Below, one piece after another: positions 1-15,690 of a stretch of 20,000 nucleotides of DNA. This DNA comes from an uncultured virus (IMG/VR IMGVR_UViG_3300042337_000191). Taxonomy: Duplodnaviria; Heunggongvirae; Uroviricota; Caudoviricetes. The stretch lies in the IMG/VR virus record IMGVR_UViG_3300042337_000191; one strand, 5' to 3'. The notes below the pieces were generated by a model. It was not told where the DNA came from. It saw only the letters and a list, made by a program, of their open reading frames with translations, and made no database searches. Numbering within the stretch: position 1 is the first letter of the stretch; each line of letters starts with the position of its first letter. The translations under genes and the position numbers were made by a program.

Positions 1-1033
1 GTTTACCACCCTCAAGTATGCGCTTGAGAAAATCGTTCGGTTCTTTCCTGCCCACAGAGCGGGAAATAGAACTACTTTCGTCATAGTTCGTAATGCTAGT
101 TCCCTTGACCTGTAGCCCACCACGATCAATCGCTGTAAGCCTCGTAATCGTCTTATACTTTGTATTGAAAGTCCAGAGTTCCATTGCACCGATGATTTTT
201 TCCGGTGACACTGAAGCAATTTTATAAGTTGCATCTTCCTTTTGGAACTTGAGACCCTTGATCTTCTTCTCAACTGATACTGCTCGTGGCTTGCGAGCCG
301 TTCTAACTTTCTTCGTATTTGAAGAATATCTCTCCGCATCTTCGATGAGGGTGTTGTAGAACGAGACGAGTTTCTTGATTTCTGTCTTTTTAAGGTGACG
401 ATAACCTTCTTTAAGCTGATCATCTTTTCCCTCATACGCTTCAAGCAATTCGTCGAGCACTGGGGAAAATTTAGCAATGATTGAAGTAGCATAGGCTGCA
501 GGAATATTGTTGCTCTGCAGCCACTCATACATCGAAAACTCTACATTCTCGTAGATGTAATCGTCAATCAATCCTTCAATCTCTCCCAAAATATCATGAG
601 TTTTCTCACGCATACGATCCTGGATAGAAATCCTCGGAGTTTCTGATTCCTCCTTGGGTTCTTCCTTCGCCTTGTCCCACATATTTAGGATCTTAGAACT
701 GAAAAACTGCATCGTAGTTCCCGATGGCTTATGACCACGAGAGATCATACGTGCAATCCAAGCAGCAGTCAAAGGAATATCTACGTCGGAGATCCTCGAA
801 AGCTTCTTGGCTAGGTCTGGCTTACCAGTGTTCTTGAAATATTCCTTTAGATAATCACGAGCATCATTGGCAGTGCACATGTAGTTATACCATGTGAAAC
901 ACTGACCCTCGTTGACATCCTGGGTCATAAGAGGCTCGTCGCCCAGATATTTCTTGTTCACAATATACTGTTCGGATCGAGAGACCCGAATAGTCTTTGG
1001 TTTACGCTTAATGAGTGCTGGGCGACGAGCCAT
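1..1033 (-). CDS. Conserved phage hypothetical protein, 3' end outside the window (MARRPALIKRKPKTIRVSRSEQYIVNKKYLGDEP...)
   Basis: ATG at 1033 with GAAGGAG SD and a promoter at 1059-1087. The frame runs off the left edge, so it is absent from the ORF track. Resembles hypothetical proteins of T4-like phages (recall only). Confidence 0.8.
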   Translation of the reverse strand, partial: MARRPALIKRKPKTIRVSRSEQYIVNKKYLGDEPLMTQDVNEGQCFTWYNYMCTANDARDYLKEYFKNTGKPDLAKKLSRISDVDIPLTAAWIARMISRGHKPSGTTMQFFSSKILNMWDKAKEEPKEESETPRISIQDRMREKTHDILGEIEGLIDDYIYENVEFSMYEWLQSNNIPAAYATSIIAKFSPVLDELLEAYEGKDDQLKEGYRHLKKTEIKKLVSFYNTLIEDAERYSSNTKKVRTARKPRAVSVEKKIKGLKFQKEDATYKIASVSPEKIIGAMELWTFNTKYKTITRLTAIDRGGLQVKGTSITNYDESSSISRSVGRKEPNDFLKRILEGGK

Positions 1034-1058
1034 GAATATCTCCTTCAATCGTATACAT

Positions 1059-1087
1059 ATTATACTTTATATAAGGGTCAAAGACAA
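1059..1087 (-). promoter_or_regulatory. sigma70-type early promoter TTGTCT-17-TATAAT
   Basis: Hexamers and spacing read directly; SD and ATG follow. Confidence 0.75.
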
Positions 1088-1094
1088 CTAAATA
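1087..1094 (+). promoter_or_regulatory. Possible T4-type late promoter variant (ACTAAATA)
   Basis: TAAATA core about 60 nt upstream of the NUMOD3-like ORF; not the full TATAAATA consensus. Confidence 0.45.
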
Positions 1095-1153
1095 TTATTG
1101 TCCGTCACGAGTTGGGAGCTCTACGGACTCTAACGCTAAGAAGGAGCATCAGC

Positions 1154-1582
1154 ATGGATATTTATGATCCAATCGGTAAAGCATTAGGTCTCGAACCTAT
1201 CGAATTTAATTATGATATAAAAACCTATTGTCCAGACCAAGAAATTATTCCTTGGAACAAAGGTTTGACAAAAGAAGATCCTTACGTCGCTGAAATAGGC
1301 AAAAGAATTTCTCAAGCAAAACAAAATAATCCTACCAAACCTTGGAACAAAGGTTTGACAAAAGAAGATCAACGTGTAAGAGAAAACTCTATAAAGGCAG
1401 CTAATACTAAAAAACAGCAGGGGTTTTATAAAGATTGCGGAAAATATCTCCCTAAACTCATAGGAGATAAAAATCATATGAAGTCTTCAGAACATAGAAA
1501 ACGTATGTCTGAATTAGCTTCTAGAAGATATAAAAAATGGAACGAGGACGGTAGCTGGACTTGGGGCTACCGTCCTCTGTAA
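1154..1582 (+). CDS. NUMOD3-like repeat DNA-binding protein (homing-endonuclease-derived, no nuclease motif seen)
   Basis: Two PWNKGLTKED motifs and an SEHRKRMSE motif. AAGGAG SD at 1141-1146 favours ATG 1154 over TTG 1112. Opposite strand to its neighbours. Confidence 0.7.
   Translation: MDIYDPIGKALGLEPIEFNYDIKTYCPDQEIIPWNKGLTKEDPYVAEIGKRISQAKQNNPTKPWNKGLTKEDQRVRENSIKAANTKKQQGFYKDCGKYLPKLIGDKNHMKSSEHRKRMSELASRRYKKWNEDGSWTWGYRPL
1250..1370 (+). repeat. 31-bp exact direct repeat (1250-1280, 1340-1370) encoding PWNKGLTKED
   Basis: CCTTGGAACAAAGGTTTGACAAAAGAAGATC occurs twice, 90 bp apart. Confidence 0.95.
1544..1577 (-). terminator. Intrinsic terminator-like hairpin after DUF932, lying inside the 3' end of the NUMOD3-like ORF
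   Basis: Perfect 12-bp stem GAGGACGGTAGC/GCTACCGTCCTC with a 10-nt loop; T run shortly after on the minus strand. Confidence 0.7.
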
Positions 1583-1583
1583 C

Positions 1584-2564
1584 TTATGCCGCTTGTTCGG
1601 CCATTTCTACTGCAAGCTCAAGAGCCTTAGTCTTGAGACCCTTGTTGTAGCCATACCAAGCCGACTGCATTCGAGTGTCAGCCGTACGACCGAGAACGTG
1701 ATCGGTCATAAACGTAACAGCGTTAAAAGGCTGCCACCAGCTGCCCTGAGCGAATTCGCTACCAGGCTGAGTGTCGAGAATACCGAGAGCCATATTGGCA
1801 TTCTTCGAACGCTTACCCTCAACCTTATCTTCCGAAGTAGCACCAGCCAGCGGGAAGATACGCTCGAAGTACTCGACGATCGTTTCAGTCTTGGCCTTCT
1901 TCGAACCAAGGAACTGAGCCATCTCCTTATACTTCTGGAGCTTGTCGGTTGCAATGCCAAGCATATCCTTCACGTTAGCAGGGTTAAACTGCTTACGATG
2001 GGAAATCTTGACCATACGCTCTACCTTCGAACTGAGCGAGAGCGAGAGCGTATTGTTGCAAACGACTCGGATCGGCGTAAACCGAACGTCAGTAGAGAAA
2101 CCATACTTGTGGAAATTAGAAAATAGAAGATAAGAGTCAATTTGATCTCCTTTGAAAAGCTCGAAAGATTCCTTGATCTTTGCGAGACCCCAAACGATCT
2201 GACCTCCCTTTAGCGAACCAGCGGTATGCATCTCCATATCGCCAGCCATCACAAACTCATTAAAGAAGTCGAACGCCTCTGCATTCTGCACGGGGTTCCA
2301 GTCGTCAGAGACAACGTCAAGCATCTTCTTGTCCTTCATACGAACAAGAGCAGACTGACCTGTCTCCATTACACTATCCGGATCGTTTTCATCCAGAATA
2401 GCAAAAGTAGGAAACTTCTGGACTTCCCAATTGAGACCAGCAGCTTCCAACATCTGTTCCGGGGTGAGATCCCCGAGAACCTTAACACCAAGACCATGCC
2501 ACGGAACATCGCCAGCATAAGCCATCTGAGCGACACCATCAACGAATTCGATTTCATGAGCCAT
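1584..2564 (-). CDS. DUF932/DUF945-family phage protein
   Basis: PWHGLG N-terminal motif, VQNAEAFDF, GSLKGG, TPIRVVCNNTL motifs; SD and promoter upstream. Confidence 0.9.
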   Translation of the reverse strand: MAHEIEFVDGVAQMAYAGDVPWHGLGVKVLGDLTPEQMLEAAGLNWEVQKFPTFAILDENDPDSVMETGQSALVRMKDKKMLDVVSDDWNPVQNAEAFDFFNEFVMAGDMEMHTAGSLKGGQIVWGLAKIKESFELFKGDQIDSYLLFSNFHKYGFSTDVRFTPIRVVCNNTLSLSLSSKVERMVKISHRKQFNPANVKDMLGIATDKLQKYKEMAQFLGSKKAKTETIVEYFERIFPLAGATSEDKVEGKRSKNANMALGILDTQPGSEFAQGSWWQPFNAVTFMTDHVLGRTADTRMQSAWYGYNKGLKTKALELAVEMAEQAA

Positions 2565-2598
2565 TTTACTTCTCCTTCACATCAACCATCATATACAT

Positions 2599-2627
2599 AG
2601 TATAGCTCGATATTTTAAAAAAGTCAA
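2599..2627 (-). promoter_or_regulatory. Early promoter TTGACT-17-TATACT with GGTTGATG leader
   Basis: Read directly. Confidence 0.85.
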
Positions 2628-2836
2628 GCGATCTTTTTGGCTTCGAGAGAGTCCTGAAAACCCTGATGGAACCCAGCATACCACTCTCGTTCACGATAGT
2701 GTTCCGACTGAACTAGCCTCTCGTTGCTCTGATCTACGGAAAGATAATTATAGGGACAATCCTTTATAGACCCTCCCTCTACATAATGCGTTTTACCTTC
2801 GAGAAAAAATTGATTAGTATACTGCCATTCATTCAT
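2624..2836 (-). CDS. Hypothetical protein, weak Rmf-like motif (G..CPY...W.AGF)
   Basis: ORF track with start moved to ATG 2836 (AAGGA SD). Confidence 0.65.
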   Translation of the reverse strand: MNEWQYTNQFFLEGKTHYVEGGSIKDCPYNYLSVDQSNERLVQSEHYREREWYAGFHQGFQDSLEAKKIA

Positions 2837-3011
2837 GTCGTTTATCCTTGACTTGAATCCAACAATTTTTAGGGTCATCGTGACACTGGACTTCCATTAA
2901 GGTGCCAGAGTCCTTCATCTTCTGTGTTATATATATTGCATCGAAATATGGGATAATCAAATATCCGCACATGAGCAATAATTCTAACCAAATTCTTTTT
3001 TTCTCAGTCAT
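2829..3011 (-). CDS. Hypothetical membrane protein
   Basis: 60 aa with a hydrophobic N-terminal segment; ATGA overlap with the upstream gene. Confidence 0.65.
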   Translation of the reverse strand: MTEKKRIWLELLLMCGYLIIPYFDAIYITQKMKDSGTLMEVQCHDDPKNCWIQVKDKRHE

Positions 3012-3328
3012 GATGAGAACGAGTAATATGCATCAATAATCTTTTGAAGTGGTCGCTCAAGACTATCATAATGTTCTTTATCTAAAATACCGCAAAGAAT
3101 ATCTTGATAATCTTCTGGTTCAAGAAACTGTTTTAGAATGTTTTGATATTGTTGACGAGTTTTTGGCTCTTCTACAGGAACACCCATTACATTAGGTACA
3201 TCGTATTGCTTCATTTCTTCGGCAATACTACGTGCAATGATAGTCTTTGCCTTACTGACAAAGTCTTTCATAGTTTCTAACTCTAACTGCTTTTTGGTTT
3301 TAGGAAAAGGTATAACTTCAGCGCTCAC
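3008..3328 (-). CDS. Hypothetical protein
   Basis: 106 aa; N-terminal VIPFP motif; coupled to its neighbours. Confidence 0.75.
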   Translation of the reverse strand: MSAEVIPFPKTKKQLELETMKDFVSKAKTIIARSIAEEMKQYDVPNVMGVPVEEPKTRQQYQNILKQFLEPEDYQDILCGILDKEHYDSLERPLQKIIDAYYSFSS

Positions 3329-3551
3329 GACTCATATCCCTTGGAACACATTTCACTTTGACATAAAAGATATCGCCTTGCCTCGGAGCAAGAGCACTCT
3401 TTGCTATTCTTTCATAGCCTTCTTTTGCACAACTCATTGGAGTGTTTTGTATTTCTCCCATGATAATTGTTGTATCTCGACCACCTTCTTTACATTCAAA
3501 ATCGGAAAGCATAGAATTACAAATTAATATGACTGGTATATATTGAATCAT
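3318..3551 (-). CDS. Small four-cysteine protein
   Basis: MIQYIPVILIC..C..C..C; ATGA overlap with the upstream ORF. Confidence 0.7.
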   Translation of the reverse strand: MIQYIPVILICNSMLSDFECKEGGRDTTIIMGEIQNTPMSCAKEGYERIAKSALAPRQGDIFYVKVKCVPRDMSRER

Positions 3552-3700
3552 CCCTGACAACGTATACCAAATTTAGCTTCAGCCCCCATTACTTTACCAT
3601 GTAGAGGACCAATCTTACATGCTTTAGATTCAATTTCTACATGTTGCTCGGTACACATTCCCGCAATGCACATATAGACAATAGCTGCAACGAGTTTCAT
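3548..3700 (-). CDS. Small four-cysteine protein, 50 aa (MKLVAAIVYMCIAGMCTEQ...RCQG)
   Basis: Translated by hand; AAGGAG SD; below the ORF-track cutoff. Confidence 0.7.
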   Translation of the reverse strand: MKLVAAIVYMCIAGMCTEQHVEIESKACKIGPLHGKVMGAEAKFGIRCQG

Positions 3701-3709
3701 TTTCGCTCC

Positions 3710-3835
3710 TTATACAAAAAAGGCATGCCAATTATGATATAGAAACCAACCAGCCAATAGAGCAAAAGCTGCTCGAGGCTGAAAGGTGCCCACTAGTAGT
3801 AAAACAACTACAACAAGCTTTGGGTCAAAAAACAT
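3710..3835 (-). CDS. Small membrane protein, 41 aa (MFFDPKLVVVVLLLVG...)
   Basis: Translated by hand; AAGGA SD; fills the gap in the operon. Confidence 0.6.
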   Translation of the reverse strand: MFFDPKLVVVVLLLVGTFQPRAAFALLAGWFLYHNWHAFFV

Positions 3836-3845
3836 ATTATATCCT

Positions 3846-4031
3846 TTATGCTGCCTTCTTAACCTCAACAAAATGTTTCTTGAGATTGTCAGAAGCTTTG
3901 TTTAAAATTTCTCCAGAAACGCCAATACGAATAAGATTAGACAACTCAATAATTTCTTCTTCTGAAATATCATTGGCTGGCTTAAACTCGAACAAATTAG
4001 ACTGATTATATTTTTTAGTTGCCTTTGCCAT
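3846..4031 (-). CDS. Hypothetical protein
   Basis: ORF track; AAGGA SD. Confidence 0.7.
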   Translation of the reverse strand: MAKATKKYNQSNLFEFKPANDISEEEIIELSNLIRIGVSGEILNKASDNLKKHFVEVKKAA

Positions 4032-4042
4032 ACGAGTTCCTT

Positions 4043-4225
4043 TTAAATCTTTTGTAGGGTTGAATTCGTTTCTATAATTTCCATCTCACTGAGGGGTACG
4101 TATTCATTTGAATTTAGGCTAGAAAAAATCTGTTTAGCTGATTCTGCTTCTTCTATTGAAGAATAGAAACCAAGAACCAAACCCTTTTTCTTATGCATTA
4201 AAACATAATAATGAGCGTTTGTCAT
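4043..4225 (-). CDS. Hypothetical protein
   Basis: ORF track; AAGGA SD. Confidence 0.7.
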   Translation of the reverse strand: MTNAHYYVLMHKKKGLVLGFYSSIEEAESAKQIFSSLNSNEYVPLSEMEIIETNSTLQKI

Positions 4226-4241
4226 TTACTATTCCTTATGT

Positions 4242-4424
4242 TTAAGATTGAGTTTTATACATAACATATGATGCGGAAAACCCTAATAGAGAAATTAGAG
4301 CACACATAAAATTTACAGTAGGATAATCTGCAACATACATTAGCAATGCATTACACAATACAAAGAAACCATTAATCCACATCATCCAAAGATGGAACTT
4401 TTTACTAAAAATAAAATCACTCAT
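4242..4424 (-). CDS. Hypothetical two-TM membrane protein
   Basis: Two hydrophobic segments. Confidence 0.65.
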   Translation of the reverse strand: MSDFIFSKKFHLWMMWINGFFVLCNALLMYVADYPTVNFMCALISLLGFSASYVMYKTQS

Positions 4425-4455
4425 TATATAGGCTTTCGCTGTTTAAAGAGACGGT

Positions 4456-4569
4456 CTACTTATTTACACTCCGAAGAAACTCCAGATACTTAGAAAGAGA
4501 AATATACCCATGGATCATAAGCATTTCCATAGCAGCGATCTTAGCTTCAATCTTTTCGTTATCAGTCAT
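4456..4569 (-). CDS. Hypothetical protein, 37 aa (MTDNEKIEAKIAAMEML...)
   Basis: Translated by hand; ATGA overlap with the upstream ORF. Confidence 0.55.
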   Translation of the reverse strand: MTDNEKIEAKIAAMEMLMIHGYISLSKYLEFLRSVNK

Positions 4570-4781
4570 AGCTTAATCCAATCTCTACGTTTCTTTAGTT
4601 TATTCACTTTAACCTTAATATACCCTCTATTCATACAGAAGGCAATAAGTTCAGTTACGTTCGAAGGAACCTTCTTCGAAATCTCCAAAGAAGCGGTTTG
4701 ACAAACAGCCAAACCGTCCGAAATAGTTACCGGATCCTCCGACACGAATTCGTATTCTCTGGTATCCTCAAAGGAGATCAT
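4566..4781 (-). CDS. Hypothetical protein
   Basis: ORF track; ATGA coupling. Confidence 0.65.
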   Translation of the reverse strand: MISFEDTREYEFVSEDPVTISDGLAVCQTASLEISKKVPSNVTELIAFCMNRGYIKVKVNKLKKRRDWIKL

Positions 4782-4966
4782 AGCGATTCAAGACCACGTT
4801 TATGGCATTCATCGACACAAGCCCAGTATTCCTTTTCATTGGCTCCACGAGCAGCAGCCTCTTGATTCCAATTACCTTCAGCAGCCATATAATACATATG
4901 CTGGCGCCAGAGACGATCCATTTCCTCGGTTAGTTGTTTATCAGTAAGCGTAGTAAAATCAGTCAT
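4778..4966 (-). CDS. Hypothetical protein
   Basis: ORF track with start moved to ATG 4966 (GGAG SD). Confidence 0.7.
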   Translation of the reverse strand: MTDFTTLTDKQLTEEMDRLWRQHMYYMAAEGNWNQEAAARGANEKEYWACVDECHKRGLESL

Positions 4967-5195
4967 GCCATTCTCCATCATCACATTCATAGAACACTCG
5001 CCCAAAATAAGTTTTGGGCATCACCATTTTAAGAGATACGTCATATTCCATGACGGTGCGATCGGGATTTCGATGAATAACCTTACAATGTTGATCAAGC
5101 CATTCCTGCCGATCACCGCCAATGGTAATGACAAAAGTCATTATTATTGCAATAGCTATCGCTCCAATAACGATAACTACTAACTCTCTATCCAT
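4959..5195 (-). CDS. Membrane-anchored hypothetical protein with two Cys
   Basis: N-terminal TM helix, then C..C. Confidence 0.7.
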   Translation of the reverse strand: MDRELVVIVIGAIAIAIIMTFVITIGGDRQEWLDQHCKVIHRNPDRTVMEYDVSLKMVMPKTYFGRVFYECDDGEWHD

Positions 5196-5487
5196 TACTC
5201 ATACCCTTGACGAGTTTCTGCCCATATTCAATACGATCACGGATGGCCTGTAGCTTACGCTTATGACCGTCCCCAGCAGTATAGTGTTCGGCCAGAGTTT
5301 CATATGCACCACAGACAGCAGCATTGTGTAGAACATCTTCTGCAAGATATTCATAACGTGCTGGATCTCGAGCCATTTTATTACTATCTTCAACAAACGA
5401 ATAGTAACAGGCTTCATATCCTTCATAGAGCATCTGAAGGAAGGCATCATCATAGGCTTCATAATTTAATTCTAAAGATAGTTTCAT
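5188..5487 (-). CDS. Hypothetical protein
   Basis: ORF track; operon continuity. Confidence 0.75.
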   Translation of the reverse strand: MKLSLELNYEAYDDAFLQMLYEGYEACYYSFVEDSNKMARDPARYEYLAEDVLHNAAVCGAYETLAEHYTAGDGHKRKLQAIRDRIEYGQKLVKGMSNG

Positions 5488-5765
5488 CACTTATAGATCT
5501 CCTCTAGTACACGTTCAAGAAAGCGAATAGGTTCTGAGTCATAGGCACCATATTTACTAAACTTCTTCATAATATCATGCATACCACTAAGAGTCTCTTG
5601 TATGGTATAGCCATTATTGACATAGTCTTCTAGTTCATTGTTCAGTCTATTTGCTATGGACTCAATTTCATCCCGAGGGAAAGACATTGTAAACAGTTCC
5701 CACTGATCGGCTGAGAAGTCAGCCTTAATGGTAGGAGACTTTATGATTGTAAGATTGTGCATCAC
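5487..5765 (-). CDS. Hypothetical protein
   Basis: ORF track; GGAGG SD. Confidence 0.75.
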   Translation of the reverse strand: MMHNLTIIKSPTIKADFSADQWELFTMSFPRDEIESIANRLNNELEDYVNNGYTIQETLSGMHDIMKKFSKYGAYDSEPIRFLERVLEEIYK

Positions 5766-5992
5766 TTATCCTCCGTCCATCGCTTTCCACAATCAGGACA
5801 TTCATATTCAAACCATTGACGATCCATAGAGGGATCATAATTCCCGCTGGAAGACTTATAGGTCTTAGTAGCATTTATATGGGGACAAAGTTGCTGCAGG
5901 CTATTAAGATCAGACTCAAGATCCGATATCTGTGCTTCAATCTCAATACGATCTGCACGAATGCCCTTACATAATAGTTGGTCCTTTGTCAT
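5762..5992 (-). CDS. Coiled-coil plus zinc-ribbon-like protein
   Basis: CPH and CPDC motifs. Confidence 0.7.
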   Translation of the reverse strand: MTKDQLLCKGIRADRIEIEAQISDLESDLNSLQQLCPHINATKTYKSSSGNYDPSMDRQWFEYECPDCGKRWTEDK

Positions 5993-6243
5993 TATGATCT
6001 CTCGATCTTATCAATGCGACGTCGCATTGACGATCGATCGATCTTATCAATGATTCCCTGCAGAAATTCGATCTCTTCTCGAACTGCATTCAATTCGCCG
6101 TCATTAAGTCCCCCATCATAGGGGTCAAATGCAACGTGCTTCTTGAGACGTTCTGCATATTCCTTGGCTTCCTGCAGTCGGGTATAAAGATCTTCTCTGA
6201 TCTCAATCCACCGATCCGTGGTGTCTCGTGAATAGAATTCCAT
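5992..6243 (-). CDS. Hypothetical protein, paralog of 17858..18052
   Basis: Shared MEF.S.D, LY.RL, EIEFL and IERS motifs. Confidence 0.75.
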   Translation of the reverse strand: MEFYSRDTTDRWIEIREDLYTRLQEAKEYAERLKKHVAFDPYDGGLNDGELNAVREEIEFLQGIIDKIDRSSMRRRIDKIERS

Positions 6244-6387
6244 TTAGTCCTCCAGTGTTCCCGGAACAATCCAATAAGAGTGATCGGTGCTCTCATCATA
6301 GGGAGCCATATCCTGTTCGGTGAAATAAAAGGCATGACCAAACATGCCAGGACAGATATACACCGACTGCCAATAAACGACAATCAT
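6244..6387 (-). CDS. WxVPGTLED micro-protein, copy 1 (47 aa)
   Basis: MIVVYWQ...SYWIVPGTLED; GGAGG SD. Confidence 0.75.
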   Translation of the reverse strand: MIVVYWQSVYICPGMFGHAFYFTEQDMAPYDESTDHSYWIVPGTLED

Positions 6388-6388
6388 C

Positions 6389-6517
6389 TTAGTCCTCCAA
6401 CGTCCCGGGAACTGCCCAGTAGGAGATATCAGCTTCGTCGCAGATGCACTCGCTAAGATAACGAATGAACGAGATATTTCGAGTGTTGTCATACCAATAC
6501 GAATAAAAGACTGTCAT
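6389..6517 (-). CDS. WxVPGTLED micro-protein, copy 2 (42 aa)
   Basis: MTVFYSYW...SYWAVPGTLED; first gene after the promoter at 6543-6571. Confidence 0.75.
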   Translation of the reverse strand: MTVFYSYWYDNTRNISFIRYLSECICDEADISYWAVPGTLED

Positions 6518-6542
6518 CTCACTTCTCCTCAACCATAGAATA

Positions 6543-6571
6543 ATTATACCACTCTTTTGATAAGAAGTCAA
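6543..6571 (-). promoter_or_regulatory. Early promoter TTGACT-17-TATAAT
   Basis: Read directly; part of a 33-bp repeat shared with 7291-7323. Confidence 0.85.
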
Positions 6572-6723
6572 GCTCGAATTTTTCGCATGCGACGATTAAC
6601 TCGATTAATGAAAAAAGGATAAGTCCCTGCATAAAAATCATCATATGGTCGAAGCCATGCATGATCTCTGTCTCTACGATAGATTATGATGGATCCCTTA
6701 CGGTAATAGCTATGGAATAACAT
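6568..6723 (-). CDS. Basic hypothetical protein, 51 aa
   Basis: C-terminal part of an ORF-track entry, from ATG 6723. Confidence 0.5.
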   Translation of the reverse strand: MLFHSYYRKGSIIIYRRDRDHAWLRPYDDFYAGTYPFFINRVNRRMRKIRA

Positions 6724-6764
6724 TTTCTCAGTTCTCCAAAATGTGCTTAGATTCGATCTGCATC

Positions 6765-7079
6765 TTACCCTGCATTGAAAGAAGAACAAACGATAGAAGT
6801 TACAGAACCTTCCTTTGCTTCGCCCAGATATTCTACCTGAACAAATTCTGGAGAAGTCCACGATAACGTACCATAATTTGCTTTCACATACGTATCGACA
6901 ACCCGACCATCTGCCTTATAGCACCACTTCTCATCCGACTCACGCCAGAAATATGGACATTCTCCATACCAATAAGGATGAATAAGACGAGCCTCATCCT
7001 CTGACTCTGCAATGACTACGGCAGAATCATAGGTATCATAATCACGGTTTTCTTCCTGAGAAATTTTATAAAGTTTCAT
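6765..7079 (-). CDS. Hypothetical phage protein (YDTYDSAVV.A.SE.EAR.IHP family)
   Basis: Motif recalled as common in phages; GGAGAGG SD before ATG 7079. Confidence 0.8.
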   Translation of the reverse strand: MKLYKISQEENRDYDTYDSAVVIAESEDEARLIHPYWYGECPYFWRESDEKWCYKADGRVVDTYVKANYGTLSWTSPEFVQVEYLGEAKEGSVTSIVCSSFNAG

Positions 7080-7266
7080 CTTCCTCTCCAAAAAATTCGT
7101 CTTCTCCAAAGGGATCGTCCATACCATAATCAATCCAGAACTGCTTTACATCGTCCTCAGACATATACATAAGGAGCGATGCAATAAGGTCTCGTGCAGC
7201 TTGATCAAGACGACCATAGAGTCCGTCATCCACCAGATCTAGGATCTTATTCGTATAGGTCCGCAT
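7066..7266 (-). CDS. Acidic hypothetical protein
   Basis: ATG 7266 with GGAG SD, directly after a promoter. Confidence 0.75.
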   Translation of the reverse strand: MRTYTNKILDLVDDGLYGRLDQAARDLIASLLMYMSEDDVKQFWIDYGMDDPFGEDEFFGEEDETL

Positions 7267-7287
7267 TTCTCCCTCCATCATATCACT

Positions 7288-7316
7288 ATGATACCACTCT
7301 TTTGATAAGAAGTCAA
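7288..7316 (-). promoter_or_regulatory. Early promoter TTGACT-17-TATCAT
   Basis: Read directly. Confidence 0.8.
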
Positions 7317-7493
7317 GCTCGAACTTTAAAAGTCAAAAAATTTTGTTGCGGATTTTTTTAAAATCCATTCGGTAAAGTCAGTGTGACCTTTTGAGGTGTG
7401 TGGTTGACCTTTTGGGCATGTCGGGGTGTGTGGAGATAATACTAGGCTCCGGGTCCCCCGCACGAACATCAACCGATTTTCTAAAGGTGCGAC

Positions 7494-7610
7494 TCACTTA
7501 CGCCAACGTCGCCGGTAGCGCACCATGTCCACATACAACTCGATCCAGATGCCATATGCGAAACCAAGCGTGAACAGAGCCACACAATCTCCAATCAGCT
7601 TCCAATCCAT
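7494..7610 (-). CDS. Single-TM micro-protein with basic tail, 38 aa (MDWKLIGDCVALFTLGFAYGIWIELYVDMVRYRRRWRK)
   Basis: Translated by hand; AGGAG SD; has its own promoter. Confidence 0.65.
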   Translation of the reverse strand: MDWKLIGDCVALFTLGFAYGIWIELYVDMVRYRRRWRK

Positions 7611-7649
7611 CTTCGTCTCCTAGTGATCCGTATTAAACCCTTCATACCC

Positions 7650-7678
7650 ATCATACCACCAATACTTGCCCAAGTCAA
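7650..7678 (-). promoter_or_regulatory. Early promoter TTGACT-17-TATGAT
   Basis: Read directly. Confidence 0.8.
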
Positions 7679-7762
7679 GCAGAGTTTTCTCGGTGGCGAT
7701 ACCTTTCCTCTGACAATCCATCAGTGTCCGCCAGAGGAGATAATGAGAGAGATGATCCGCCA

Positions 7763-7936
7763 TTACCACTCTCTATACTGTCGAGCTCGAGCCTGACGAT
7801 ACTCATCCAGACACCATTGGTCTAGCTCTCGTACCTCTAGGTCGTAGGTCTGTTGGTCAATGATACCACGGCTGAGCTCTCGGTCGAGCCTGTCCATGGT
7901 CCGTTCGGCGATACGTTCGATTTGGTCCTCGGTCAT
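7763..7936 (-). CDS. Hypothetical helical protein (MTEDQIERIAERTMDRLD...)
   Basis: ORF track with start moved to ATG 7936 (GGAG SD). Confidence 0.75.
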   Translation of the reverse strand: MTEDQIERIAERTMDRLDRELSRGIIDQQTYDLEVRELDQWCLDEYRQARARQYREW

Positions 7937-9341: not shown

Positions 9342-9503
9342 TCAATAGCTTGTCAACGAAACATGATCCTCTACGTCATAGCCATAGAATTCAGGGAATT
9401 CCTGGAAGTACTCGAGGTAGGACTTGACTGCTACCCGAGATATGTTATAATAGGCTCTGTCAAAGCCATCGAAATAGAGGATCAGATTGAATGAACGAAT
9501 CAT
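9342..9503 (-). CDS. Hypothetical protein, 53 aa
   Basis: From ATG 9503 (GAGGTG SD, ATGA coupling). Confidence 0.7.
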   Translation of the reverse strand: MIRSFNLILYFDGFDRAYYNISRVAVKSYLEYFQEFPEFYGYDVEDHVSLTSY

Positions 9504-9601
9504 TGGATCACCTCGAGGATCTGAACCAGAACAATGAATACAGCCAAGCCAACGGTCATCAGTCCGAGGCCAATTACGTTCTGCATATCTTGGGTTCTCA
9601 T
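9500..9601 (-). CDS. Single-TM micro-protein, 33 aa
   Basis: From ATG 9601; AAGGAG SD; follows a promoter. Confidence 0.65.
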   Translation of the reverse strand: MRTQDMQNVIGLGLMTVGLAVFIVLVQILEVIQ

Positions 9602-9632
9602 CAGCAGTTCTCCTTTCAACCTTACATATATG

Positions 9633-9661
9633 ATTATACCCAGTTTCGGAAAATTCGTCAA
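9633..9661 (-). promoter_or_regulatory. Early promoter TTGACG-17-TATAAT
   Basis: Read directly. Confidence 0.85.
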
Positions 9662-9745
9662 GCGAAAAATGACTCTCTCGGCAACTTTTTTTGAGCTTGG
9701 TCTGTGCTGTAAGGAACACCTGCCCCGCCCAATACCACTCCCTAG

Positions 9746-9774
9746 AGTATACTCCATTTTTGAGAAAAAGGCAA
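9746..9774 (-). promoter_or_regulatory. Promoter TTGCCT-17-TATACT, no ORF before the next promoter
   Basis: Read directly. Confidence 0.75.
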
Positions 9775-9830
9775 GCTAGGCTGTAGGGCTACCGCTAAAA
9801 TAAATTTGCTCGTTACAGCACAGTCTCAGC

Positions 9831-9859
9831 TTGCCTTATAAGGGGATCAGCGGTAATAT
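9831..9859 (+). promoter_or_regulatory. Promoter TTGCCT-17-TAATAT
   Basis: Read directly; GAAGGAG SD and ATG 9886 follow. Confidence 0.7.
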
Positions 9860-9885
9860 AATAATGGTAACTGAAGGAGAAACTC

Positions 9886-10107
9886 ATGAAAGCGATTTAT
9901 TTTCCCTTTAAAGGTTCAAATAATTGGGCTTTTATTAATTCGTGGGTTAATTCATGCGGCCCAATTGGGGTTATATATTATGGGGAAAATGAAATGATGA
10001 TCCCGGTATTAGCGACCGAATTAAATACCTATAATAAAAAGCCTTTAGATTTTTATAAAAATTCGCCTAAGTTTAATAAACGACGGGGGTATAATGCCCC
10101 TTATTAA
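9886..10107 (+). CDS. Hypothetical protein in the AT-rich island
   Basis: Promoter, SD and a 73-aa ORF. Confidence 0.7.
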   Translation: MKAIYFPFKGSNNWAFINSWVNSCGPIGVIYYGENEMMIPVLATELNTYNKKPLDFYKNSPKFNKRRGYNAPY

Positions 10108-10145
10108 TAATTAAAAAAACTTAGTAATTCTTGGCTAATTGTTAA

Positions 10146-10224
10146 TGCTCTTGGTTGTGTGTGGGTTTATAATAAGTTCAACAACCAAGAGCACCAACAC
10201 GCATTAGCACGCATTAGCAAGCAT
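10146..10224. repeat. 13-bp inverted repeat (10146-10158 / 10181-10193) followed by about 2.7 tandem copies of CACGCATTAG
   Basis: TGCTCTTGGTTGT / ACAACCAAGAGCA; tandem units start at 10198, 10208 and 10218. Confidence 0.9.
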
Positions 10225-10248
10225 ATACGCCTCGAATAGCGCAGAGAT

Positions 10249-10275
10249 AAAAAAAAGGGGATTTTTTATACCCCT
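10249..10275 (-). terminator. Intrinsic terminator
   Basis: Minus strand reads AGGGG-N10-CCCCT then a T run, just after the stop at 10294. Confidence 0.65.
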
Positions 10276-10293
10276 AAATATATTCCCTTATTA

Positions 10294-10494
10294 TTATTCT
10301 TTAATCTCTAGGTATTCCCTATATTTCTCTCTTAGGAGTTGCCTATCCTCTATTAACATATGGGTTAGCGTTCCCATTAAATCATATTCCCTTCGGTATT
10401 CTTTTAATTGGCGTAATTGGTAGTATCTTAGGTATAACTGGCCTATTATTGATTCTATTTCTAATTCTATATCCTCTACGGTTTTATTTTCCAT
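10294..10494 (-). CDS. Hypothetical coiled-coil protein
   Basis: ORF track; AAGGA SD. Confidence 0.65.
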   Translation of the reverse strand: MENKTVEDIELEIESIIGQLYLRYYQLRQLKEYRREYDLMGTLTHMLIEDRQLLREKYREYLEIKE

Positions 10495-10627
10495 TAAACC
10501 ATTCCTTTCGCATTTCGCCTATTATATTAATAAACCATTCAGGACCGAATATTAATACGCCTATTGCTAGTAATATAGAGCCGAATGATAGTATTAGACG
10601 GGCGGCGATATTTGATAGTAGTTTCAT
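10484..10627 (-). CDS. Single-TM micro-protein, 47 aa (MKLLSNIAARLILSFG...)
   Basis: Translated by hand; GAGGGG SD; fills the operon. Confidence 0.6.
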   Translation of the reverse strand: MKLLSNIAARLILSFGSILLAIGVLIFGPEWFINIIGEMRKEWFNGK

Positions 10628-10628
10628 T

Positions 10629-10811
10629 TTATTCCCCCTCAATCTTAATATTCTTCCAATCCGGGAGTAATTCGAATAATACGCCTTTAATTTCTTTTAA
10701 TACTCTACCCTCTACTATTTCCTCTACTCTGTATATTTGATTATGATTATAATAAGCGGCGATTAATCTATAATAATTACCGTTCTTCTCTTTGATGATT
10801 CGCTTAGTCAT
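10629..10811 (-). CDS. Hypothetical protein
   Basis: AGGAG SD and an upstream promoter. Confidence 0.7.
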   Translation of the reverse strand: MTKRIIKEKNGNYYRLIAAYYNHNQIYRVEEIVEGRVLKEIKGVLFELLPDWKNIKIEGE

Positions 10812-10833
10812 TTCGTTTTCTCCTACTATTCCT

Positions 10834-10861
10834 ATTCTACGCCTTTCCGGAAAAAAGGCAA
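10834..10861 (-). promoter_or_regulatory. Promoter TTGCCT-16-TAGAAT
   Basis: Read directly. Confidence 0.75.
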
Positions 10862-10929
10862 GCGCTGACTCTGCTGTAAGGCCAAGAAATTATTTTAAAA
10901 AAAATGACCCCATATGGTCTAGCTGGCGC

Positions 10930-10957
10930 TTGCCTTTTTCGGCGAAACGGGTATACT
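10930..10957 (+). promoter_or_regulatory. Promoter TTGCCT-16-TATACT with GGTTGA leader
   Basis: Read directly; near-identical to the promoter at 17616-17643. Confidence 0.85.
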
Positions 10958-10986
10958 AAGAATATGGTTGATTGAAAGGAACTGAT

Positions 10987-11220
10987 ATGACTACGTTTAC
11001 CTACCCGACTCAAGCTGAACTGTTGATCCTTATTGCTAAGACCGAGTTTAAGCCGTTCGATAAAATGGATTGGGACGCCTTTGCGGGTTGTGAAAGCGAT
11101 AATCCGTTTATCGGCTATTCCGACGAGTTTACTATCGTTCTTGACGGTCATCTTATTAATATTATTCATTCCGAAGATAGCTATGGCGGTCAGTTATTTG
11201 AATTGAATAAACTGGCCTAA
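10987..11220 (+). CDS. Hypothetical protein
   Basis: ATG 10987 after an AAAGGA SD. Confidence 0.8.
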   Translation: MTTFTYPTQAELLILIAKTEFKPFDKMDWDAFAGCESDNPFIGYSDEFTIVLDGHLINIIHSEDSYGGQLFELNKLA

Positions 11221-11231
11221 TATAGTATAAT
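11203..11231 (+). promoter_or_regulatory. Promoter TTGAAT-17-TATAAT
   Basis: Read directly; GAGGAG SD follows. Confidence 0.6.
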
Positions 11232-11257
11232 ATTAATATAATAAGAGGAGAGTTAAT

Positions 11258-11509
11258 ATGGATAATATTAACGAGAATTGGCTTATCCGCACCGACGAAA
11301 TGGCCTATAAATTCGAACAGGGCGATCTAACCGTAGATAAGTTTACGGACGATCAATTAACCTATTTGATATACTGGAACTTCGGAGTTTCTGGTGTATC
11401 TATTATGAAAGAAACTAAACTCGCCGAAGAAGAATTAATTCGCCGAGGTAATCCCTATTCCGAGGATTACGCCGATGAATTAAATGCTAAGACGGAGGAT
11501 TATCTATGA
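11258..11509 (+). CDS. Acidic hypothetical protein
   Basis: ORF track; SD present. Confidence 0.8.
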   Translation: MDNINENWLIRTDEMAYKFEQGDLTVDKFTDDQLTYLIYWNFGVSGVSIMKETKLAEEELIRRGNPYSEDYADELNAKTEDYL

Positions 11510-11724
11510 TTTATGATATATCTAAATGGTCGACCGAACAATTGGTTGACTTATTAAATCATTCAGGTTATAGTAGCGATGATATAGTTTCTTGTTACTA
11601 TAAACAAACGCTGTCCGAGGGTCATATAGTCTTTAATATAGACTACGAGAACCTAGATGGCGAATTAGAATCAGGTAATGTCTTTGTATTCATTCGCGAT
11701 GGTAAACTGGTCGCTGAGTTCTAA
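11506..11724 (+). CDS. Acidic hypothetical protein
   Basis: ATGA coupling; GGAGG SD. Confidence 0.8.
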   Translation: MIYDISKWSTEQLVDLLNHSGYSSDDIVSCYYKQTLSEGHIVFNIDYENLDGELESGNVFVFIRDGKLVAEF

Positions 11725-11725
11725 G

Positions 11726-11785
11726 TTGGTCGCAGCGTAGGTCAGCGAGTTGGTCCTTCACTTGGTCAGGAGATAGGTCATGTCT
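11726..11785 (+). repeat. 12-bp-period array, 5 units with TWGGTC core
   Basis: GGTC at 11728, 11740, 11752, 11764, 11776. Confidence 0.95.
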
Positions 11786-12085
11786 TTTAGAGTTACAAAT
11801 AACTTCGCCGATGCGAATATGACTGGTCTGGTTGGTTATGTTAATACAACCTACGCAGATCTGGTCGAGGCGTTCGGTCAGCCCCAGCAAGGCGGCGATA
11901 AGACTAATTCAGAATGGATTATTAAGTTCTCTGACGGTCAGGTAGCGACTATCTATGACTGGAAAGAACCTATGACGCCGACCGATGATTATGACTGGCA
12001 TATTGGCGGTAAACGCTCGGTCGTTGTTGAGCGTATTGCTAATATTCTAGGTGTCGGTAATAACTGTTGGTCGACCGATAGGTAA
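11780..12085 (+). CDS. Conserved phage hypothetical protein (TY..LV..FG.P / ATIYDWK / WHIGG family)
   Basis: Motifs recalled from phage early proteins; AGGAG SD. Confidence 0.85.
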   Translation: MSFRVTNNFADANMTGLVGYVNTTYADLVEAFGQPQQGGDKTNSEWIIKFSDGQVATIYDWKEPMTPTDDYDWHIGGKRSVVVERIANILGVGNNCWSTDR

Positions 12086-12222
12086 TCACTTAGGTCAGAC
12101 GATAGGTCAACCCGCTGGTCATTAAGTTGGTCAGCGGGTTGGTATTGTCGTAGGTAACTGCGTAGGTAGGTCAGTTGGTCACATCATAGGTAAACCAGTA
12201 GGTGAGTCAGATGGTCAACAAA
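12067..12222 (+). repeat. 12-bp-period array, 13 units with TWGGT(C/A) core
   Basis: GGT every 12 bp from 12069 to 12213 with no phase slip. Confidence 0.95.
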
Positions 12223-12277
12223 CATAATAGCGGCCAGCGCATAGATTAATCCGGCGAATAATCCTATTGCTAGGGGT

Positions 12278-12505
12278 TTACTCATCTTCCTCTCCCATAT
12301 ACTTGTCCCATTCCGCCGCCGTAATTCCGCTCTTAATAAACTCTCTGGCGTCGGAGGACAACTCGGGGAATGCCTCTTGAATTAACTTCTCTCCTCGACG
12401 CCAAGCTAATAGGCGTAACTCGAACTCGTCCTGATCATAGGCGGCAAACTCCATTGTATGCAGCTTGTTCGTGAATGGACTAGTCTTAGTAATTCTTGCT
12501 GTCAT
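12278..12505 (-). CDS. Conserved phage hypothetical protein (LIQEAFPELS..REFI.SGIT..EW family)
   Basis: Motif recalled as widespread in phages. Confidence 0.85.
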   Translation of the reverse strand: MTARITKTSPFTNKLHTMEFAAYDQDEFELRLLAWRRGEKLIQEAFPELSSDAREFIKSGITAAEWDKYMGEEDE

Positions 12506-12508
12506 ATA

Positions 12509-13144
12509 TCACCTAAATGATGGTCCGGCAACCCACATAACCAAAGAGTTTCTTATTCCCTTTGTTACTGGTGTCACTTCGTGAATAGTAAATGATGGAA
12601 ATAATAATACAGAGCCTCTTGTTGGTCTAATCTTAAAATCACGTGCATAAGGAAAACGTAGCTCGCCTCCTTCAAACTCATCTGGGTCTGAAAGTAATAC
12701 AGTCAATGATAGCTTTCTTGCTATTGTATTATAATCTCTATCCGAGTGAGCAATATAATGCTGCTCATCGTTGCCGTTATATTCCAGGAATTGCATAGGC
12801 TCTACGGGACCAGTCAAATCGAAATGAAAATGTCTTTGATTGGCCGTGACTACTACTTCTCTGATCCTCTCGATTACAAAAGCCAAATTCTCTTTTTGTT
12901 GTTCGGGCGACGCCTGATAAACCGTGCAGTTTCTTACGCTCTTGTCAACATTTCCCTCGCCAACAGAAGAAACATTCGGCGTAGTGTTGTTCTTATAATA
13001 ATCAATAATATCGTTACACTCTTTGGCGTCGAATACCTTATGATAAATTGCGAACTCTTCTATATTGTCTCGATGTACTCCGGGAATATCAAAAATACTA
13101 GGTATCTTGATTTCATTTTGATCATCACCAGTATCAATAATCAT
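12509..13144 (-). CDS. 2OG-Fe(II) oxygenase (PKHD/prolyl-hydroxylase type)
   Basis: HSD, RKLS, FEGGEL, FPS, HEVTPVTKG.R.SLV.W motifs. Confidence 0.93.
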   Translation of the reverse strand: MIIDTGDDQNEIKIPSIFDIPGVHRDNIEEFAIYHKVFDAKECNDIIDYYKNNTTPNVSSVGEGNVDKSVRNCTVYQASPEQQKENLAFVIERIREVVVTANQRHFHFDLTGPVEPMQFLEYNGNDEQHYIAHSDRDYNTIARKLSLTVLLSDPDEFEGGELRFPYARDFKIRPTRGSVLLFPSFTIHEVTPVTKGIRNSLVMWVAGPSFR

Positions 13145-13147
13145 TTA

Positions 13148-13795
13148 TCACTCCGGAATTTTAGGATCTTTAATAGGCGGAAATGGTTTGGCTTTCCCAG
13201 TTTTGTTAGGAACAAAATTAAACCATCCTGTAAGAATATACTTCTCTTGCGTTGGAGATACTACACCACGATGGAAATGAGTCCAGTCGACTGGCCATAT
13301 CATGGTCAATCCCTTCTCTGGGCGTAGATTAATACGTTGATGATAGAATTGCGTTCCGCCTCGATCAGTAACGTCATTAAGATATGTCATAAACGCCAGA
13401 TGACGAGATACTCCTGGCTCAACACAACTTAGACGTTCGGAATGCCAAATTTTAAATCCGCCACCCGGAGGATAATATTGAATATTTGGTGGGCTAAGAA
13501 CATCTACATCATCACCATACGCTGACAAAGGATATACCTTTTGATACTCATTCATTATGTCATGCAAATGAGCATAATACTCTTTTAGAATTGTATCGTC
13601 GCTTAAATGACAATCAACGGAGTCTTTAATTGATTTGTTAACAACTCTCTGGCCAAACTCGTTATGAATAATTCCAGCACTCTTATCTGAGTTATTATTA
13701 AACCATTCAATAACTCTATCGCAGAAACTGGTGTCTTTCATATACCATCCCAGGATGAAATTACCTGGGATTGGATTTAGTATATGTGATTTCAT
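13148..13795 (-). CDS. 2OG-Fe(II) oxygenase (prolyl 4-hydroxylase-like)
   Basis: WHSE, YLNDV..GG.T.F, WP..WTH.HRG, KYI.TGW motifs. Confidence 0.93.
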   Translation of the reverse strand: MKSHILNPIPGNFILGWYMKDTSFCDRVIEWFNNNSDKSAGIIHNEFGQRVVNKSIKDSVDCHLSDDTILKEYYAHLHDIMNEYQKVYPLSAYGDDVDVLSPPNIQYYPPGGGFKIWHSERLSCVEPGVSRHLAFMTYLNDVTDRGGTQFYHQRINLRPEKGLTMIWPVDWTHFHRGVVSPTQEKYILTGWFNFVPNKTGKAKPFPPIKDPKIPE

Positions 13796-15050: not shown

Positions 15051-15253
15051 TCGTCTACTCTTACAAAAAGATCATCAGGGAATGTTCTGTTGTATGGCTT
15101 ACCTTCGAGCGTAACTACTCCGGCAACAGCCAACATTTTATCTACAACATAGATTGCACCAGGAGTTAGTTCCAATGTGTCAAGAAACGGGTGATCAGGA
15201 ATAACTCTTACCCGATCACCCGCCTTAAACGTAGCGAAATCTGTTCGCACCAT
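15047..15253 (-). CDS. Small beta-barrel (SH3/KOW-like) protein
   Basis: FKAGDRVRV and LTPG..Y.V motifs; TGATG coupling. Confidence 0.75.
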   Translation of the reverse strand: MVRTDFATFKAGDRVRVIPDHPFLDTLELTPGAIYVVDKMLAVAGVVTLEGKPYNRTFPDDLFVRVDE

Positions 15254-15690
15254 CAGAAGTCCCCCGGAGACACCTGAAGGCAACGAAGACCCGCCGAACG
15301 CCACATCTTAACCACTCGATCACGATCTTCGAGAACGAGCACAGGCTCATATCCCGCTTCATAGATCTGCTCGAGCAATTCGAACTTTACGATATCGTCA
15401 TCACGACGATCTCCTAACTTACGCATATAAAGAGCATGATAAGGAATATCATTCTCAGTAAGCCAGTCTAGAGTATCCTGACGACACTTCTCGTCACGAG
15501 CAGTGCAAAGGACAATCTTAATATCGTAGTCCGCCGCCATATCTAATAGGGCGACGACTTCCTCGATAGGCTCGTCCTTATGGGCATTAGAATGCCATGC
15601 ATTCCAGTCTTTATGCCCATTGGTAATGTAATGGATACGATGCTCTGTATTAGCAATCGTTCCATCAATATCCACGATCCAACACTTCAT
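15253..15690 (-). CDS. HAD-family phosphatase, like the 3'-phosphatase domain of T4 polynucleotide kinase/phosphatase; no kinase domain
   Basis: DIDGT, TAR, LYMRK.GD.R.D..VK, EDR..VV.MWR..G motifs. Confidence 0.9.
   Translation of the reverse strand: MKCWIVDIDGTIANTEHRIHYITNGHKDWNAWHSNAHKDEPIEEVVALLDMAADYDIKIVLCTARDEKCRQDTLDWLTENDIPYHALYMRKLGDRRDDDIVKFELLEQIYEAGYEPVLVLEDRDRVVKMWRSAGLRCLQVSPGDF

Follow-up and report, generated by a model that had tools for sequence, protein, structure and literature searches.

Phased 12-nucleotide word arrays at small-gene junctions of a T4-like phage: possible messenger RNA cassettes

What could be the use of two runs of a short DNA word, repeated every 12 nucleotides (nt) on either side of one small gene? 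The question is raised by a 20 000-nt stretch of an uncultured virus (IMG/VR record IMGVR_UViG_3300042337_000191), which is called the window here at its full length. An earlier reading of this DNA, made from the letters alone (the sequence-only reading), had reported five units upstream and 13 units downstream of the gene at a 12-bp period. Both arrays were recovered by sequence inspection and with an array finder, and all units lie on the + strand. Related contigs, loci and genomes are referred to by working handles (L or G and a number). The features on which the argument rests are the following.

11726–11785, + strand: upstream (leader) array, five in-phase 12-nt units, predicted to be unstructured as RNA.
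11762–11782, + strand: ribosome-binding cassette, composed of core, AGGAGA (11768–11773), core and ATG (11780–11782).
11780–12085, + strand: gene of 101 amino acids (aa), with ATIYDWK/WHIGG, whose last codons enter the terminal array.
12067–12222, + strand: downstream (terminal) array, 13 in-phase 12-nt units between convergent genes.
12104–12145, + strand: conserved stem-loop formed by four of the terminal array's units.

The arrays are real, lineage-specific and under selection at the nucleotide level. Pairs of TWGGT spaced by 12 nt occur 15 times in the window for an expectation of 0.12, and this number was reached in 0 of 200 shuffles. Thirteen of the 15 phased pairs are inside the two arrays; the remaining two are at 10417 and 18299. 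The repeat unit is an 8-nt core, R-T-W-G-G-T-C-A, followed by four free bases. Unit statistics were calculated from 87 distinct units (112 in total) of 10 representative related loci.

Position 1: T in 92% of units.
Position 2: A in 44 units and T in 43; C or G in no unit.
Positions 3–5: G-G-T, invariant.
Position 6: C in 87%.
Position 7: A in 77%.
Positions 8–11: free (0.04–0.11 bit).
Position 12: purine in 79%.

Core and period had both been described as invariant. The period is, but within the core only G-G-T is truly so: in the terminal array, unit 5 begins with CTGGT, unit 13 with ATGGT, and five units have A or G at position 6. Likewise, the spacers do vary, but not over the 6 or 7 nt first given, as positions 8–11 alone are free. 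Since the core is kept while positions 8–11 are randomised, a decaying minisatellite, the outcome which the sequence-only reading had named as contrary to its proposal, is ruled out. Homologous arrays vary in steps of whole units, the terminal array of the window being that of L179 plus three units. Taken together, the sequences point to selection for a nucleic-acid word repeated at regular intervals, and a platform with many binding sites is the simplest reading. For the polymeric protein binding first suggested, the conserved core and phase, the free linker, the non-coding nature and the conservation in relatives were all found, but a binding partner was not.

The non-coding nature of the arrays was checked in all frames. 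Stops had been claimed in all six frames of the terminal array; they are there, although + frame 2 and − frame 0 have one stop each. These single stops are compatible with a coding repeat or its recent wreck, either + strand (G-x-x-hydrophobic)n or, on the − strand, a small membrane protein open reading frame (ORF) with a (D/Y-Q/L-x-x)n tail, reached by readthrough of the one stop. Each frame would give a four-residue repeat; in L290 the + frame is open and has an ATG, in L485 three in-phase units lie within a real-looking gene for an 88-aa glycine-rich membrane protein, and in L271 the − frame is the tail of a 74-aa ORF. However, codon choice is frozen and runs against the phage's own usage in all frames: GGT in 87/87 units (usage 48%), GTC in 76/87 (usage 9.5%) and GAC (usage 26%). 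The in-frame TAA of the hairpin loop is conserved in five relatives, and upstream genes enter the arrays in frames that differ between relatives. No suppressor transfer RNA (tRNA) was found in G002, a 162-kb, 98%-complete IMG/VR relative that contains the L067 locus; an amber-suppression reading of TAG/TTG was rejected on the same ground. Judged by codon usage, translation of the arrays is excluded in every frame, and a coding origin was considered extremely improbable.

Two coding occurrences of the word were recorded beside this. At the end of the array block of G009, L485 2451–2717 (+) encodes an 88-aa, signal-peptide, glycine-zipper-like protein in which the units read G-x-x-V; an array may have been taken into a gene there, or the reverse. 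On an unrelated contig, L271 398–622 (−) is an ORF of 74 aa that is coupled to the gene of an HNH endonuclease; a 10-unit array with the same core encodes the eight D-Q-x-x repeats at the end of the ORF.

About ten related contigs bear the same arrays. A pattern scan of IMG/VR returned mostly simple or coding repeats, plus L067 with a syntenic pair of arrays. A search with the 75-aa neighbour of the terminal array (p75) gave seven loci, and in-phase arrays of at least four units were present in 7/7. Homologs of the 101-aa gene, a check proposed by the sequence-only reading, divided: arrays of at least four units were found in 6 of 80 IMG/VR loci and none in the 74 more distant ones. Other scans added L339/L483, L290, L250, L300/L477, the L474 group and L479. 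In an unbiased scan for phased 5-mers with diverse linkers (periods 9–24, 82 loci), 13 of the 15 cases had period 12, and 12 of these 13 had this core. The wider motif scan that had been wished for showed that the phased pairs are confined to one block of 0.4–2.5 kb in each relative's genome (G002, 5/5 pairs; G007, 8/8; G003, 9/9; G008, 11/12; G009, 5/6; G010, 4/4), with counts of 0–1 per genome for reversed-pattern controls. In bacterial genomes, the four-unit pattern was met at 119 loci or more; among the matches listed, six had diverse linkers, mostly within long ORFs, and none was comparable to the phage arrays. As for the phage itself, G002 has the T4 core gene set: DNA polymerase (gp43), gp41 helicase, gp61-type primase, gp32, clamp and loader, UvsX/Y/W, RegA, the gp55 late sigma factor, gp23, gp20, sheath, tube and baseplate. 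It also encodes PhoH, MazG and many 2-oxoglutarate (2OG)-Fe(II) oxygenases. On gene content, the window is part of the hyperplastic small-gene region of a T4-like phage, whose genome would be about 160 kb long.

In every relative the arrays occupy gene junctions. They extend from the upstream stop codon, or one base after it, to the next start codon, and a unit's own TAG often doubles as the upstream gene's stop. In the window the Shine–Dalgarno (SD) sequence AGGAGA is in unit 4 and the ATG in unit 5 of the leader array, and the stop of the 101-aa gene (TAA, 12083–12085) is in unit 2 of the terminal array, all as first reported. That the arrays bracket one gene is true of the window but incidental, as relatives have arrays at every junction of runs of two to four genes, and the gene content between arrays varies among them. 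The last two units are near-identical everywhere (core, AGGAGA, core, ATG or GTG). By hand count, the start codon is at unit positions 7–9 in 12 of 14 gene starts, and the cassette stands before eight unrelated small gene families. The exact 19-nt cassette pattern was found at 13 IMG/VR loci. In metagenome contigs it gave 79 matches, 25 of them with at least three phased units; the others were unrelated chance matches, mostly in high-GC contigs. All arrays are sense to their flanking genes, in at least three genomic contexts, and this holds in L250 and L300/L477, whose homologous genes sit on the − strand of the window.

RNA folding separated the two kinds of array. Leader arrays were no more structured than shuffles (z ≥ −0.2 in 7/7); for the leader array of the window, z was −1.0 in one run and +0.7 in another. 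Strong folding was obtained for 6/9 terminal arrays (z −2.5 to −7.6), and that of the window folded at −56.6 kcal/mol (z = −5.06 for the + strand, −4.15 for the − strand). The arms of the stem-loop are 12108–12121 and 12128–12141, the loop is 12122–12127, and outer pairs extend to 12104/12145. It is built from four units in mirror order, core pairing with core through tandem G.U and linker with linker. Cores can pair in RNA but not in DNA, because UGGUCA is self-complementary only as RNA, through G.U. GGUC/CUGG is a specially stable tandem G.U context in nearest-neighbour rules. RNAalifold on five relatives gave 18 pairs, two with compensatory double changes, and both single-side changes in the stem remain paired only as G.U on the + RNA. 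L067 forms a hairpin of equal build from unrelated (non-homologous) linkers, and the array of L250 ends in a canonical terminator with the core as its loop. Because the arrays are always sense and SD/ATG-locked, and because the G.U pairs exist in the + RNA only, a transcript-level role would fit best among the options of the sequence-only reading.

The other strand of the terminal array could be read as a Rho loading track, carried by the antisense (−) RNA and stopping read-through from the convergent − genes into the + block. An excerpt of PMC6407284 gives rut sites as about 78 nt, richer in C than in G, with cytosines every 11–13 nt. The antisense RNA of 12067–12222 has 47 C and 27 G, with 13 regular CC and an ACC every 12 nt, and the array sits where L139 has an intrinsic terminator; the sense RNA has more G than C. 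However, Rho requires only a YC dinucleotide, and the conserved 8-nt word is unexplained if YC suffices. The antisense RNA is also predicted to be structured (z = −4.15), which disfavours Rho, and neither the leader arrays within the operon nor the SD/ATG register is explained. This role was judged very improbable.

The arrays are tentatively explained, with a little under half of our belief, as modular messenger RNA (mRNA) cassettes: operator tracks for a putative cooperative RNA-binding regulator, with a 3' stem-loop and a spread like that of the promoter-early stem-loops (PeSLs) of T4-like phages. The cassettes would act in the mRNA of one small early accessory-gene operon, in a T4-like lineage, where the word R-U-W-G-G-U-C-A and four free bases would make one 12-nt unit of RNA. 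The intergenic cassette, from stop codon to start codon, would remain single-stranded, and its last two units would set the word directly 5' of the SD and again between SD and AUG. We infer that a protein binds this single-stranded RNA cooperatively and sequence-specifically, one copy per 12 nt, covers the ribosome-binding site and affects translation. The cassette would then be a translational operator track in the manner of T4 RegA or gp32, though with another word. At the operon's 3' end, mirror-order units would fold, because GGUC/UGGUCA self-pairs through G.U, into a long stem-loop marking or protecting the RNA 3' end, in place of the ordinary terminator of array-less relatives. As repeats with almost the same 3' end, the cassettes may double as recombination joints, moving small genes in and out as PeSLs do. 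The probability left over from this and the rival explanations was assigned to explanations not thought of.

Several points weigh against mRNA operator tracks. One array block per genome suits a cis-acting DNA site, unlike a genome-wide regulon. The parity of A and T at position 2 is typical where double-stranded DNA is read from the minor groove and would be odd for an RNA recognised base by base, and the arrays found inside replication-initiator genes (below), with the same core and period, give a DNA-binding reading a direct precedent. The sense-only orientation is backed by about three independent contexts, and the fixed ATG register could be copy-and-paste descent of one 21-nt cassette, not function. 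No binding protein was found among the small proteins of the block by PHROG/Pfam, PDB and fold searches. The products of the first gene of the block (p83) and of the 75-aa gene were modelled at a predicted local distance difference test (pLDDT) of 85.9 and 87.5, respectively; neither had a PDB sequence match, and neither model matched a nucleic-acid-binding or any other fold (Foldseek E ≥ 1.4; VIA Z ≤ 4.3 for p83 and ≤ 3.0 for p75). The 101-aa protein gave PDB matches at chance level only. The p75 gene is present at 16/17 array loci and also in the array-less L139. Neither p83 nor p75 tracks the arrays strictly, both being found in array-less relatives. In particular, p83 was rejected as an array-tracking partner, since its homologs occur in array-bearing relatives but also in the array-less L491–493.

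A cassette might also work with no binding protein dedicated to it, by providing in-frame stops, a standard ribosome-binding site of high strength, a spacer free of structure and easy GGUC stem-loops; it would spread by recombination and be partly selfish. This was held to be quite unlikely. The patchy occurrence in close relatives, the near-identical 3' cassette before eight unrelated genes and the inter-array gene content that changes from genome to genome speak for it, as do the hairpins that adjacent or mirrored units do make and the PeSL precedent (passages of PMC4122927). However, it leaves unexplained the conservation of T1, A7 and the purine at position 12, the strict phase despite randomised positions 8–11, and the A at position 2 in half of the units, which weakens self-pairing; the leader arrays show no structure.

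The comparison of close relatives bears on the DNA-level options. In the array-less L139, the 72-aa-type, 101-aa and 75-aa genes are highly identical to those of L140/L143; the first junction carries a plain SD, and the second a canonical intrinsic terminator. The four-gene block of L067 is retained in L491–493, again without arrays and with plain SDs. Because these close relatives keep the genes without the arrays, the arrays are, on this comparison, dispensable and gained and lost between close relatives. Such gain and loss argues against an essential site in cis, be it for packaging, as a centromere or as the only origin; this conservation test would not reveal an accessory origin. The proposal of a centromere or packaging site was not supported. 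No partition motor or centromere-binding gene (ParM, ParA, TubZ) was present in the PHROG/Pfam matches of the window ORFs, and none among the 144 PHROG-scanned proteins of G002, where small proteins of unassigned fold remain. The tubC centromere of pBtoxis has a 12-bp repeat. The iterons treated in PMC6009700 are other than this tubC repeat.

The iteron-like site survived only in part: tandem repeats of fixed spacing are there, but no cognate initiator was found in the window or G002, and the repeats are missing from L139 and L491–493. It was kept as the main rival because the same core and 12-bp period are found in initiator genes of other phages. Such arrays, of four to eight units and with free linker bases, were found within the replication-initiator genes of three groups of phages unrelated to one another: L229 2484–2612 (group L229/L286/L296), L241 1578–1673 and L297 2496–2555. 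They are antisense to the gene and translated as a (D-Q-x-x)n linker; in L229/L286/L296 the initiator is O-like and is followed by a DnaB-like helicase gene. These arrays are probably origin iterons, judging from their place and sequence. For the window, double-stranded DNA iterons would form a track for a DNA-binding protein, acting as an accessory origin, a roadblock or repressor platform, or decoys that titrate the initiator of a competing replicon; at a 12-bp period the bound proteins would spiral round the helix. We regard this as unlikely, though more serious than the other alternatives. The initiator genes are the classical place of iterons, A and T are 50:50 at position 2, there is a single locus per genome, and T4 oriE, in passages of PMC3016281, is also an early-transcribed small-gene stretch with evenly spaced repeats. 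By contrast, no initiator homolog was found in the window or G002: the three iteron-bearing initiators gave a best E of 0.09 by phmmer against all ORFs of at least 40 aa of both, and no initiator was seen among the 144 PHROG-scanned G002 proteins of at least 110 aa, smaller or unrelated initiators being possible. Furthermore, close relatives keep the flanking genes without arrays, the arrays are always sense, SD/ATG-registered and copied before unrelated genes, and the terminal hairpin relies on G.U pairs, which do not exist in DNA.

Other candidates were dropped on comparison with consensus sequences. They were T7-type primase sites (GGTC), the phage lineage having a T4 gp61-type primase; the sigma-54 spacing TGG-N8-TTG, the −12 GC being missing; SD-like standby sites, C6 mismatching the anti-SD; the elemental pause consensus; and pairing with the tRNA CCA end.

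A bolder proposal, which is doubtful, has two versions. An undescribed polymerising nucleic-acid-binding protein with a 12-nt footprint might switch the cassette-marked early accessory genes at the RNA level; in a DNA version, decoy iterons copying the origin repeats of rival replicons might starve their initiators. Either way, a portable stop–ribosome-binding site–start cassette would be passed among abundant freshwater T4-like phages.

The array-bearing block (10972–12085, + strand) is short, lies amid − strand genes and ends at a convergent junction. Its further features and its neighbours are the following.

11203–11231, + strand: sigma-70-like promoter candidate TTGAAT-17-TATAAT, with 10/12 consensus matches, preceding the array block.
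11258–11509, + strand: p83, 83-aa gene, the first of the block, a predicted four-helix protein.
11506–11724, + strand: p72, 72-aa gene, with its TAA at 11722–11724, one base before unit 1 of the leader array.
12184–12285, − strand: 33-aa hydrophobic ORF, whose start overlaps the stop of the 75-aa gene.
12278–12505, − strand: p75, 75-aa gene (phrog_20898), the convergent neighbour of the terminal array.

No PHROG or Pfam match was obtained for p72. The 101-aa gene is widespread among phages, with 109 homologs, none of which has a name. The final 10 codons of the 33-aa ORF lie across the terminal array's three weakest units; counterparts are present in L140, L143, L067 and L182, and none in L179. 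Record G001 is identical to window 1–7765 and ends there. A blastn search of 11400–12600 against INPHARED gave no match, and no Rfam family was matched in 9500–13000; a tRNA scan was also empty.

Beside the block, two 2OG-Fe(II) oxygenase paralogs lie in tandem at 12509–13144 and 13148–13795 (−); in G002 at least nine such genes are scattered. At 15253–15690 (−), the HAD phosphatase domain of polynucleotide kinase-phosphatase (PF25109, E 1e-37) is encoded on its own, the kinase domain being absent. In L479, a separate P-loop kinase-like 134-aa gene is among the genes preceded by an array cassette. CA-rich tracts occur near the array block (window 10180–10230, L182 2325–2370, L290 2350–2440), that of the window containing a 10-nt tandem repeat of 2.7 copies (10198–10224). 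In G002, at about 134.1 kb, L350 14100–14418 (−) is a permuted two-piece transfer-messenger RNA (tmRNA) gene with a 15-residue tag, beside a tRNA-Arg; the genome has a total of eight tRNAs. Permuted tmRNAs are a typical feature of alpha-proteobacteria and cyanobacteria, and this one may hint at the host of G002. L347 4958–7014 (G002, about 65–67 kb) encodes a 457-aa protein with weak similarity to queuine tRNA-ribosyltransferase, beside an amidotransferase-like gene and MazG. Going by these names alone, the cluster may serve DNA modification with 7-deazaguanine.

The T4-like phages found in lakes and oceans belong to the most abundant of all viruses, and the control of their many small accessory genes is poorly known. 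What is defined here is a conserved, strictly phased, non-coding word track, fixed to the ribosome-binding sites of unrelated genes and gained or lost between close relatives. If the track is read by a protein, it would represent a new kind of control, post-transcriptional (or at the DNA level), whose 12-nt step is unusual, and would also provide a portable module of natural origin for gene junctions. Without such a reader, the PeSL idea would be extended to repeated cassettes of quite different design that drive gene shuffling. The same word and period in unrelated initiator genes is a separate lead, on the co-evolution of origin iterons and protein linkers.

Among known systems, the analogy first drawn with CsrB as an RNA sponge is loose. 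CsrB/RsmZ are dedicated non-coding RNAs with many GGA (ANGGA) words, irregularly spaced and some of them in hairpin loops. Many copies of a short word are common to both, but the arrays use another word (the core is G-G-U-C, and GGA is confined to the SD unit), are exactly spaced and are parts of mRNAs. The operators of T4 RegA and gp32 are unstructured RNA around the SD/AUG of early genes, bound by a repressor, one operator being common to several unrelated genes; gp32 binding is cooperative along single-stranded RNA. They differ in being A/U-rich and non-periodic, and although G002 has a RegA homolog, nothing connects it to the G-G-U-C word. T4 oriE has evenly spaced 12-nt repeats ('iterons') in an early-transcribed stretch with small genes, their role being described as undefined in passages of PMC3016281. 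In the T4 record, only one repeat of this sort is found close to the oriE mark, a coding repeat with a 24-nt period in gene 5 (beta-helix), from which we infer, on those passages, that this repeat is what was meant; unlike the arrays, it is coding, unrelated in sequence and not at gene junctions.

Two further systems were compared. Origin iterons of the lambda O/ori type sit within the initiator gene. The initiator-gene iterons of L229, L241 and L297 share the core word, the 12-bp period and the free linker bases with the arrays, but they are inside a gene, antisense and translated, whereas the arrays are intergenic, sense, SD/ATG-tied and dispensable, with A equal to T at position 2. Why different initiator families share the word and the period is unexplained. 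PeSL cassettes of T4-like phages were reportedly treated by Arbiol et al. in 2010. They are mobile regulatory cassettes, and passages of Comeau et al., 2014 (PMC4122927) describe them as short, conserved and intergenic, located in hyperplastic regions beside small variable ORFs and indels, with the SD and start codon of the next gene as 3' end, with stem-loops and with a sequence that differs by phage lineage. The hyperplastic setting and the SD-plus-start 3' end were both found here (window 11762–11782); PeSLs have a stem-loop (terminator) on their 5' side, and strong folding was obtained for 6/9 terminal arrays and 0/7 leader arrays. In the same passages, PeSLs contain a sigma-70-type −35/−10 promoter, are non-periodic and are dispersed over many places, whereas the arrays are a strict 12-nt repeat in one block per genome; a consensus scan found no + strand promoter-like site in 11726–11785 or 12067–12222, the nearest being at 11203 and 11546. 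In the literature searched, no description of this 12-nt word track was found. The statement of the sequence-only reading that no described system matches was nevertheless too strong, as PeSLs share the place, the 3' end and the shuffling context of the arrays, and iterons share their core and period.

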